From assembly GCF_003334355.1 (NCBI RefSeq), contig NZ_QOWP01000079.1: a stretch of DNA of 1,837 nt. One strand, 5' to 3'. Position numbers and translations under genes: made by a program. Under the pieces are notes generated by a model. That model did not search any database and had not been told where the DNA came from. It saw only the letters and a program-made list of their open reading frames with translations. This stretch comes from Escherichia coli. GTDB lineage: Bacteria; Pseudomonadota; Gammaproteobacteria; Enterobacterales; Enterobacteriaceae. Shown here piece after piece: positions 1 through 1,837 of the stretch. Each line of letters begins with the position of its first letter. Positions within the stretch are counted from its first letter, which is position 1.

Positions 1-24
1 GGAAAAACGAGTATTTTTAGTCAT
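1..24 (-). CDS. IS3-family transposase OrfA, N-terminal 8 codons only (MTKNTRFS); rest of gene lies outside the window
   Basis: ATG at 24..22 on the minus strand, preceded by a good SD, with the frame open to the window edge. The N-terminal peptide matches my memory of IS629 OrfA. Only 8 codons are visible. Confidence 0.55.
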
Positions 25-31
25 CCTGTTT

Positions 32-38
32 ACCTCTT
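32..38 (-). promoter_or_regulatory. Shine-Dalgarno (AAGAGGT) for the IS transposase orfA
   Basis: Minus-strand AAGAGGT lies 7 nt upstream of the ATG at 24..22. Confidence 0.5.
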
Positions 39-53
39 TCTCAGGGAGTTTAG

Positions 54-78
54 TCTCCAGGATTTCCGGGGCGGTTCA
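54..78 (-). repeat. Terminal inverted repeat (IRL) of the IS629-like element
   Basis: Plus 54..78 is tctccaggatttccggggcggttca, whose reverse complement is TGAACCGCCCCGGAAATCCTGGAGA. This matches 1761..1785 (TGAACCGCCCCGGGTTTCCTGGAGA) at 22 of 25 positions, differing only in the central AAA versus GTT. Confidence 0.7.
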
Positions 79-86
79 TTGACGCT

Positions 87-1064
87 ATGGGGGATACCCC
101 TGTCGACCTATCAAACACGGTAAAAGCTATCGACAATCAGATTGCCGTGTTAAGCCGCCCGGGCAAATCTCAGGATAGAGCCGCGGTAAAAGTCTTGCAG
201 CAATTTAAAGACGATATCACCAGCGGACCCAATGACCTGCGTCTGGCGAGAGAAAACAGAACTGACCTTCGAAAGCGGTTCATGAATTCAAACGAGACTG
301 TTGATAAAGACACGCTCCAGAAAGCCAGCGATATTGTCTACAAGGCATATACGCTGGATATGAGAAGGGCAGTAGCCCAGAAACTGGGTTCAGAAGAAGC
401 AGCCAATATGGCAAGGGTTGATCGCTCATGGTCTAAATTCAATGACATGATGGGAAGAACGCGCGTTCAAAAGGCAATAGCCAGCGGCAAGGCCACGCCT
501 GAGGATGTAACAAAACTCGTGTTTAGCCAAAGCCCATCAGAACGTTCTCAGCTTTACAGGCTTCTGGATGACAATGGTAGGCAAAACGCACGAGCAGCCA
601 TAGTTCAGAATGCTGTAGATAAGGCGACTGATCCGTCTGGAAATATCAGTGTTGAGAAGTTTATTAATGCGTTACACCGGAACAGGAAGCAATCAGCAAC
701 TTTCTTTAAAGGCGTGCACGGAAAGGAACTGGACGGCATTATTAAATACCTCAACGATACCAGACAGGCGGCAAAGGTTGACGGTCAGAAATTAAACAGC
801 CAGAAACTTTATGGCCTGCTGGTTGGTGGAGGCGCTATAAATGCGGCAGTTCTGGCGGGGATGCTGAAAACGGCTGCGTTTGTTGTTCCTGCTGCTGGTG
901 CTTTAGGCGGAGCAGCGAAGGCATACGAAAGCCCTGTTATACGAAATGCCTTATTACGTCTGGCAAATACGCCAAAAGGTAGCACAGCATATGACAGAGC
1001 GATCAGTACAGTCACACAATCACTGACCACAGCAGCACAAGCATCGCAAAAGGAAGCTCAATAA
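87..1064 (+). CDS. Hypothetical protein, 325 aa, hydrophilic N-terminal region and C-terminal Gly/Ala-rich hydrophobic hairpin (residues ~241-277); possibly 5'-truncated or promoter-disrupted by the adjacent IS
   Basis: Uninterrupted 978-nt ORF from ATG 87 to TAA 1062..1064 with protein-like composition throughout. In-frame stops upstream lie inside the IS. No canonical SD within 15 nt upstream of the ATG, which is only 9 bp from the IS terminus. By hand count, 12 of 23 Arg codons are AGA/AGG and there are 4 ATA Ile codons. No family assignment possible from sequence alone. Confidence 0.7.
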   Translation: MGDTPVDLSNTVKAIDNQIAVLSRPGKSQDRAAVKVLQQFKDDITSGPNDLRLARENRTDLRKRFMNSNETVDKDTLQKASDIVYKAYTLDMRRAVAQKLGSEEAANMARVDRSWSKFNDMMGRTRVQKAIASGKATPEDVTKLVFSQSPSERSQLYRLLDDNGRQNARAAIVQNAVDKATDPSGNISVEKFINALHRNRKQSATFFKGVHGKELDGIIKYLNDTRQAAKVDGQKLNSQKLYGLLVGGGAINAAVLAGMLKTAAFVVPAAGALGGAAKAYESPVIRNALLRLANTPKGSTAYDRAISTVTQSLTTAAQASQKEAQ

Positions 1065-1123
1065 CAGATGACCATGGATGGTTGGCTATAATAGTAATTA
1101 GTTTTTTCAAATAGTTATGAACA

Positions 1124-1522
1124 TTAACACTTGCCTTTAACATTGCCGACAAATGAGCCTGTAAATGAGCCTATATCAGATCGACTAATTGTTCGTGTAT
1201 GGATCACTTTTCCGTCATTTGAGATTGCCCATGTGACAAGCGTCAGTTGACCATCTCGATAGCTTCTTCCCATCATGGCATTCGGAGATAGCGGGTAATA
1301 ATCAATACCTCCACCTATACCATCTTTTGCCAAGATAAGATCCGCCTTCTCTTTACTTATTACCAAATGAAAGGTATCTGGTATAGATGATAACTTATAG
1401 TTATACCCATCTGAACTTGAGGCTTCTTGTCCTTTCAGATCACCAATAATCCAGCATTCAGCGTTCGCTCCAAAAGAAGCAAATAATAAACCGGAGACAA
1501 CCAATCGCTTCAATTGATTCAC
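1124..1522 (-). CDS. Hypothetical Sec-exported small protein (132-aa precursor, ~111-aa mature); start assigned to GTG at 1522..1520
   Basis: Stop TAA at 1126..1124 on the minus strand. GTG at 1522..1520 is preceded by GGGAGG with a 6-nt spacer, and translation from it begins MNQLKRLVVSGLLFASFGANA|ECWII, a canonical signal peptide. Alternative in-frame ATG starts at 1564..1562 and 1561..1559 have weak SDs. The six-frame ORF extends to 1837 only because the frame stays open through the IS end. Confidence 0.7.
   Translation of the reverse strand: MNQLKRLVVSGLLFASFGANAECWIIGDLKGQEASSSDGYNYKLSSIPDTFHLVISKEKADLILAKDGIGGGIDYYPLSPNAMMGRSYRDGQLTLVTWAISNDGKVIHTRTISRSDIGSFTGSFVGNVKGKC
1460..1522 (-). 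other. Predicted Sec signal peptide (21 aa) with AXA cleavage motif (ANA|EC)
   Basis: Positively charged n-region (MNQLKR), hydrophobic h-region (LVVSGLLFASFG), c-region ANA, then an acidic residue. There is no lipobox, since the Cys is at +2 after a Glu, so a lipoprotein is unlikely. Confidence 0.6.
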
Positions 1523-1528
1523 ACCAAC

Positions 1529-1534
1529 CCTCCC
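1529..1534 (-). promoter_or_regulatory. Shine-Dalgarno (GGGAGG) for the minus-strand secreted-protein gene
   Basis: Minus strand reads AAAGGGAGGgttggtGTG. Plus 1529..1534 is cctccc. Confidence 0.55.
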
Positions 1535-1740
1535 TTTAGCGTTGTTTAGAATGGCAATCATCATATATCCAAGACATGGCATTTGGTACATAGCTTGGGT
1601 CGGGATTTCAAATCCGCCCCCGTTGATGGGGTCGTTACAGTACGCGCATATCCGCTTTATGTGAAACAGGAAGATTTTTCTGATATCACTGCCACAGCAA
1701 AACACCAATTTCGAGACAAGTACGCGCGCGAGGGGTATCA

Positions 1741-1760
1741 GTTGCAAAAAGTTTTGCAAC
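1741..1760. repeat. Perfect inverted repeat GTTGCAAAA-AG-TTTTGCAAC (9-bp arms, 2-bp spacer), directly abutting the IS terminus
   Basis: Read directly from sequence: 1741..1749 is the exact reverse complement of 1752..1760. The IS terminal TG starts at 1761. No T-run follows on either strand, so it does not look like an intrinsic terminator. Confidence 0.85.
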
Positions 1761-1785
1761 TGAACCGCCCCGGGTTTCCTGGAGA
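1761..1785 (+). repeat. Terminal inverted repeat (IRR) of an IS629-like element
   Basis: TGAACCGCCCCGGGTTTCCTGGAGA, 22/25 identical to the reverse complement of 54..78, starting with the 5'-TG typical of IS3-family termini. Confidence 0.7.
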
Positions 1786-1837
1786 GTGTTTTATCTGTGA
1801 ACTCAGGCTGCCAGATCATCGTTTCCGATGGAAGCAT
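1761..1837 (-). mobile_element. IS3-family insertion sequence (IS629-like), transposase-distal right end; element body continues beyond window end
   Basis: IRR at 1761..1785 followed by sequence that diverges from the left-end interior, as expected for the opposite end of the same IS type. Two minus-strand frames terminate at 1816..1818 and 1803..1805, one of which may be the orfB stop, but this cannot be resolved here. The orientation implies the transposase genes are on the minus strand, the same as the left copy. Confidence 0.65.

Follow-up and report, generated by a model that had tools for sequence, protein, structure and literature searches.

Two like-oriented IS629 (IS1203) ends around P22-like prophage DNA in Escherichia coli: probable separate insertions

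Results and Discussion

Insertion sequence ends in the window

The window, meaning the whole stretch of 1,837 nucleotides of E. coli DNA that was analysed, begins and ends in insertion sequence (IS) DNA. In local BLAST comparisons, positions 1..78 were identical to the last 78 nt of a 1310-bp IS1203 element in E. coli strain I2 (100%, 78/78; L008 7907..7984), and positions 1761..1837 were identical to the first 77 nt of the same element (100%, 77/77; L008 6675..6751). The matching reference copy spans 6675..7984 of L008 (1310 bp), is flanked by a 3-bp duplication, CAA, and carries the RefSeq label 'IS3-like element IS1203 family transposase' with a programmed frameshift. IS1203 is an isoform of IS629 (PMC3271280).

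A repeat finder located the terminal inverted repeats, of 25 nt each, at 54..78 and 1761..1785, where they face one another across 1682 nt and are 88% complementary. The repeats start with TG and finish with CA, which, along with the identity to the ends of the reference element, places both termini in IS629/IS1203 of the IS3 family. From position 78 leftwards the minus strand reads TGAACCGCCCCGGAAATCCTGGAGA..., and from position 1761 rightwards the plus strand reads TGAACCGCCCCGGGTTTCCTGGAGA....

The left end (1..78, minus strand) is the IRL-proximal part of one copy and includes the IRL (54..78), the orfA ATG (24..22) and the first eight orfA codons (MTKNTRFS). The right end (1761..1837, minus strand) is the IRR-proximal part of another copy and spans the IRR (1761..1785), the orfB stop codon (1805..1803) and the final 10 codons of orfB. 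Both transposases are on the minus strand, and the two IS ends are in direct orientation. A preliminary description of this DNA had named the elements as IS629-like, had given them the same orientation and had set their interior boundaries at 78/79 and 1760/1761; the identity to the ends of the L008 element bears all of this out to the base.

The IS sequence visible in the window comprises the inner ends only, at 77-78 nt per copy and 155 nt in total. A full-length IS629/IS1203 has about 1310 bp, with orfA, orfB, a programmed -1 frameshift and a DDE transposase, and of these the window shows 8 codons of orfA and 10 of orfB. The amount of IS at the contig ends was 78 and 77 nt in the window and 28 and 30 nt in an independent k=31 Logan contig. 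A short contig with IS termini usually reflects an assembly broken at a repeat, and most likely the window is one such contig in full, assembled from short reads up to the point where a multi-copy IS was met; so little of either IS would be visible because the assembler broke there.

A truncated gp16-family gene next to the left IS

Directly adjoining the left IS is the 3' part of a P22 gp16-family DNA-ejection gene (79..1064, plus strand), in frame with and 100% identical to the corresponding part of L001 10882..12987, which encodes an 'injection protein' of 701 aa. The open reading frame listed at 87..1064 (325 codons) starts at the internal Met377 and corresponds to residues 377-701 of that protein. 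Its product matched phrog_770 'DNA transfer protein' with an E value of 2e-91, the alignment covering profile positions 325-667 of 668 only. Additionally, a match to PF26808 Phage_P22_gp16 is on record for the gp16-like protein, RefSeq genomes annotate the gene as 'P22-gp16 family phage DNA ejection protein', and the gene occupies the gene-16 position as in Lederbergvirus N7. Profile homology thus places the gene in the gp16 family, and the coding sequence is incomplete, with residues 375/377-701 of 701 remaining.

An open reading frame beside an IS-terminated contig end may be a gene fragment and not a cargo gene. Because the frame here continues through residues 377-701 and phrog_770 aligned only C-terminally, it is evident from the sequence that the left IS split the gp16-family gene after codon 374 and that the 325-codon frame is a dead 3' fragment. 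The enclosed DNA had been described as holding two cargo genes; one of the two is, on this reading, a fragment created by the left IS itself. Two guessed fusion products of the truncated gp16 N-terminus (383 and 384 aa, for a Logan contig ending 26-30 nt into the IRR) were looked up and neither was on record. A look-up with the 325-aa N-terminal frame of a frameshift variant yielded no contig ending at the left IS, and the contig L014 runs past the site.

A small gene for a predicted secreted protein and its upstream region

An intact small gene lies on the minus strand at 1124..1522; its product is most likely of 132 aa, from a GTG start codon at 1522..1520 that is preceded by a GGGAGG ribosome-binding site. 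The mechanical list of open reading frames gave 237 aa for this frame, there being no stop codon before the end of the window. An independent gene call in L006 also gave 132 aa, calls elsewhere gave 145/146 aa, and RefSeq gives 146 aa. The protein carries a predicted N-terminal Sec-type signal peptide, MNQLKRLVVSGLLFASFGANA|E, and matched phrog_2651 'unknown function' (E 1e-22), with no match in NCBIfam, PADLOC or PDB. A defence-gene reading was rejected, there being no relative in these three resources, as was a lipoprotein reading, as the protein has no lipobox and its Cys lies two residues past the predicted cleavage site. A different protein, of 145 aa and encoded downstream beyond the right IS, is listed in 5223 blocks of the collection, too many to pick out the adjoining contig.

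Upstream of the small gene is a conserved non-coding region (1523..1760) whose far end is cut by the right IS. Conservation of window positions 1517..1760 was 97-99%, including in islands whose small open reading frame is another one. The right IS inserted 238 bp upstream of the small gene start, leaving the frame itself intact, and sits in the 3' arm of a palindrome at 1739..1762 (11-bp arms), where the terminal TG of the IS restores the arm. Pattern scans gave numbers near those of shuffled sequences, with 4 promoter-like patterns versus a mean of 2.8 (sd 1.6) and 3 terminator-like patterns versus 1.8 (sd 1.6). Transcription of the right IS runs towards the small gene, and it is possible that read-through could drive the latter.

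In L008, L016, L017 and L021 other open reading frames replace the small gene, while the gp16 3' end and the 244 bp of window 1517..1760 are kept. In phage N7, the DNA downstream of the gene-16 homologue holds small minus-strand open reading frames that adjoin the arc/ant immunity region (immI). Because related islands swap the frame located between the gp16 3' end and 1517..1760, and because N7 has small minus-strand frames at this place, the small gene may best be viewed as a swappable cassette of the moron type within a P22-like module.

The enclosed segment in its native context

By megablast, several complete genomes matched the interior of the window (78..1762, with 1682 bp between the IS ends) at 100% identity, in the same linear order and with no interruption. 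At least 80% of the window was covered at one place in 124 of 5426 complete E. coli genomes, in line with the earlier suggestion that the enclosed DNA is accessory. Among the best 30 matches listed, the alignment spans 78 to 1761 or 1762 and so ends where the IS ends begin, and none of the 124 genomes holding the segment had an IS at either junction. The left junction, searched alone, had no carrier among the 5426 complete genomes. The right junction, searched alone in the same set, matched only in strain I2, and there as a join of two pieces, the IS lying ~580 bp further along.

In E. coli strain 510016 (L001), the matching DNA is located inside a prophage-like island. The order of genes in this island is an integrase, regulators, a TOPRIM/DUF927 primase, a 'phage DNA ejection protein' (Inj_translocase, gp20-like) and the 701-aa 'injection protein' of the P22 gp16 family, after which the island continues with the small minus-strand hypothetical gene, PerC and further phage debris. 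The module follows the integrase and primase within the island in both L001 and L002; in the parts of these two records that were examined, neither head nor tail genes were among those annotated or called. As uninterrupted islands carry the segment base for base, with island DNA continuing on both sides of it, the segment is, by this comparison, evidently a piece of a P22-like prophage remnant or island that is native to its surroundings, and not cargo borne by the IS.

The order of a gp20-like gene, a gp16-like gene and then small open reading frames on the opposite strand is shared with P22-like phages (Lederbergvirus) such as Escherichia phage N7, as are the phrog_770 and PF26808 matches of the gp16-like protein. 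Unlike in these phages, the module follows an integrase and primase in an island in L001 and L002, the gp16-like gene is truncated in the window, and nucleotide identity to the closest sequenced phages is low, at only ~68% over 41% of the segment. Cargo of a known phage was rejected as a description of the segment, the best match in the phage collection being that of ~68% to Lederbergvirus N7 and HZ41. Known plasmid cargo was likewise rejected, as the plasmid collection gave only one partial match, on a chromosome-size record.

Prophage DNA is a common target of this element. In E. coli O157:H7, 62% of IS629 copies are within prophages or prophage-like elements, and IS629/IS1203 is among the most abundant IS elements of EHEC and Shigella (PMC3271280). 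The copies described here share with known IS629/IS1203 the 155 nt identical to the 1310-bp element, the TG...CA repeats and a prophage-like target, and are unlike known copies in that neither insertion site was found in any of the 5426 complete E. coli genomes.

Related contigs and the order of insertion

Two short-read contigs that carry the left junction were found by an exact-protein look-up of the 325-aa fragment and compared by local BLAST. The first, L007 (SRR10357312, 1740 nt), is an independent assembly identical to window 51..1790 and has both IS ends. The second, L005 (ERR4578542, a contig present in 5 samples), is identical to window 51..1762 and continues into 2.5 kb of native island DNA, so that it has the left IS only. 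The left insertion thus exists without the right one. Because of this left-IS-only contig, the comparison points to two separate in-situ insertions, one after the other, rather than to arrival of the block as a unit.

IS629 generates target-site duplications of 3-4 bp (PMC3271280). On this basis and from the uninterrupted sites in L001, the predicted duplication of the left IS would be TTG (79..81; uninterrupted site ...cgcataa|ttgacgc) and that of the right IS would be AAC (1758..1760; uninterrupted site ...ttttgcaac|tgcgtcc). Insertion in place predicts that the DNA to the left of the left IS would read ...GCGATATAACCGCATAATTG and that the DNA to the right of the right IS would read AACTGCGTCCGACCAGTACG...; the left-outer junction would be ...AAGCGATATAACCGCATAATTG|TGAACCGCCCCGGGTTTCC... 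and the right-outer junction ...TTTCCGGGGCGGTTCA|AACTGCGTCCGACCAGTACGCAC.... None of three contig collections (viral, genome-representative and metagenome) had the inner-left junction. The predicted left-outer junction, searched with a gap of 0-6 nt, was absent from the genome and metagenome contigs, and since the window's own left junction is equally absent there, this result is uninformative about the duplications.

Sequential insertion and alternative explanations

The arrangement is very probably the product of separate insertions of two IS629 (IS1203 isoform) copies, alike in orientation and 1682 bp from each other, in a degraded P22-like prophage or island of an E. coli/Shigella chromosome. 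In this scenario, copies of IS629, a member of the IS3 family with copy-out-paste-in transposition, would have landed one after another, in place, in a prophage remnant. The left copy would have landed in the gp16-family gene, splitting it after codon 374, and the right copy in the palindrome of the non-coding region, 238 bp upstream of the small gene. The right copy would thereby separate the small gene from the sequence further upstream, with IS transcription running in the same direction as the gene. Both copies would be complete (1310 bp), each would have its own duplication, and the island would continue beyond both.

An alternative is an IS-mediated rearrangement (an adjacent deletion, an inversion or recombination with a distant IS629) at one IS copy or at both, in which case the DNA outside the pair would not be the rest of the island. 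IS629 has indeed been tied to deletions in EHEC, and strains carrying IEE show stimulated IS629 excision and adjacent deletions (bioRxiv 10.1101/2023.06.07.543989), and matching duplications were reported at only 21 of 47 O157 IS629 sites (PMC3271280). The missing left-outer junction would also fit a rearrangement, with the reservation that the collections concerned lack the inner-left junction as well. However, nothing positive spoke for such an event at this locus, and L005 indicates that the right side of the segment was native before the second IS arrived, so that we regard a rearrangement as unlikely.

A second alternative is a composite transposon: the block of IS, segment and IS (~4.3 kb) would have moved in one piece through its outermost IS ends and brought both genes with it. 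The layout of two like-oriented copies of a transposition-competent IS type around a short segment is compatible with this, and compound transposons of copy-out-paste-in IS in direct orientation are known, such as Tn6330 with ISApl1 (bioRxiv 10.1101/2023.06.07.543989). The mechanism of elements of this kind would allow a whole block to transpose by its outer ends; such a move is not supported here. The left inner boundary divides a gene midway, and uninterrupted relatives have the other half immediately upstream; the right inner boundary falls within a conserved intergenic region of the native island. Neither junction occurred in the 5426 complete E. coli genomes or in three contig collections, and L005, with its left junction and no right IS, is an intermediate to be expected from sequential insertion and not from transposition of the whole.

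With respect to what defines a composite transposon, the segment lies between the inner ends of two IS copies of like orientation, whose outer parts are beyond the window. A foreign passenger found at more than one site within a single duplication was not what the searches returned; the passenger is colinear, native island DNA, and one contig has the left IS alone. The likeness to Tn6330 (ISApl1-mcr-1-pap2-ISApl1) is limited to the two like-oriented copies around a short segment. Unlike in Tn6330, the IS ends here enclose native DNA that contains one half of a disrupted gene and gives no sign of having moved with the IS. Compound transposons such as Tn6330 can lose one or both of their IS copies through recombination or abortive transposition (bioRxiv 10.1101/2023.06.07.543989). 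Altogether, a composite transposon is a very unlikely explanation, and the terms 'cargo' and 'composite unit' used in the preliminary description do not suit a segment that is internal to a larger island, with a base-for-base match on both sides, and that occurs in L005 with the left IS alone.

Least probable, to a degree that we give it hardly any weight, is that the window derives from a 2,992-bp circle of the segment and a single IS629 excised by recombination between the direct copies: in an assembly graph, a circle would be expected to show an IRL at one end and a like-oriented IRR at the other, and the independent L007 assembly has this layout too, but a circle with no replication origin would be rare in the reads of an isolate, and the chromosomal left junction of L005, with native DNA on its right, makes a chromosomal IS-segment-IS arrangement simpler.

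Under sequential insertion, later loss of the segment can also be considered. Direct repeats of 1.3 kb are a classic substrate for deletion, and loss of the segment by recombination between the two copies is plausible. RecA-dependent recombination would delete 79..1760 together with one IS, and would either leave the gp16 N-terminus, one IS and the downstream DNA in succession or release a 2,992-bp circle. Searches of the 5426 complete genomes and of viral, genome and metagenome contigs found no such deletion product, no other context for the IS-segment-IS unit and no spread of it. That the IS629 pair acts as a working translocatable unit, as a 4.3-kb compound transposon or a 2,992-bp circle, and takes the small secreted-protein gene to new replicons is most doubtful; if true, the pair would represent a rare natural case of a nascent IS3-family compound transposon.

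Relevance for strain typing

The arrangement is ordinary biology of a kind already known, namely a decaying prophage with two IS insertions, one of which disrupts a gene, and its significance beyond strain typing is very small. In E. coli and Shigella, the sites of IS629 insertion serve well as markers of lineage, and the nested pattern described here, with the left IS in several samples and the left and right IS in fewer, is such a marker.

IS elements were also seen elsewhere in related islands. The corresponding island region of strain I2 harbours one more IS1203 copy, which lies ~580 bp further on and is oriented as here, and in L015 an IS3-family transposase gene was also called nearby.

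Variable region of the island

Downstream of the P22 gp16-family DNA-ejection protein gene (gp16-like gene), the minus-strand small gene (in the interval at window 1065-1522) is, judging from synteny, a swappable cassette. Related islands, among them the E. coli I2 region (L008) and loci L016, L017 and L021, keep both the 3' end of the gp16-like gene and a 244-bp segment matching window positions 1517-1760, and between these two kept segments they carry unrelated ORFs of 129-232 aa (i.e., at 5503-5892 in L008, and also in L016, L017 and L021). In Lederbergvirus N7, the position equivalent to that of the small gene in the window is taken by small ORFs on the minus strand, next to the arc/ant region.

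Independent IS3-family insertions were also found in this part of the island in other strains. Strain I2 carries an IS1203 copy (L008 6675-7984) approximately 580 bp past the point corresponding to the right junction of the window, and locus L015 carries an IS3-family transposase gene (1972-3200) in the same island region. These insertions suggest that the variable region of the island has been a repeated insertion target.

The IS sequence at the ends of the window amounts to 78 and 77 nt, versus 28 and 30 nt in an independent k=31 contig (L007, from SRR10357312). In all likelihood the window corresponds to one entire short-read contig, broken off within a collapsed repeat.

Surrounding island and gp16-like gene decay

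In the examined stretches of the E. coli 510016 island (L001 1-19000) and of comparison locus L002 (1-16000), the island genes included an integrase, AlpA, AntA, Ash and a TOPRIM/DUF927 primase. The only P22-like phage genes of this island were the gp20-like and gp16-like ejection-protein genes; gene calling in these stretches yielded neither head nor tail genes. The island resembles a mosaic or satellite-like element retaining ejection proteins. Other versions of the island have gp7 or a 906-aa SLT-gp16 fusion.

In several other genomes, a 1-nt deletion in a T-run at gene position 953 splits the gp16-like gene into two 325-aa ORFs (L002 8874-10978; also L003, L004, L006 and L009-L014), and decay of this gene is therefore independent of the IS.

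Palindrome and shared 19-nt word

A palindrome with 11-bp arms (CAGTTGCAAAA-AG-TTTTGCAACTG, window 1739-1762) is part of the conserved DNA upstream of the small gene, and the insertion point of the right IS falls within its 3' arm. The terminal TG of this IS restores the native 3' arm. The palindrome could represent an operator-like site or reflect an IS target preference.

The sense strands of the two convergent genes, gp16-like and small, share a near-identical 19-nt word at 441-459 (AATGACATGATGGGAAGAA) and 1264-1282 (AATGCCATGATGGGAAGAA), respectively, with 18/19 identity. The encoded peptides are N-D-M-M-G-R-T in one gene and N-A-M-M-G-R-S in the other. Among 200 mononucleotide shuffles of 79..1760, only one contained any 18/19 inverted match.
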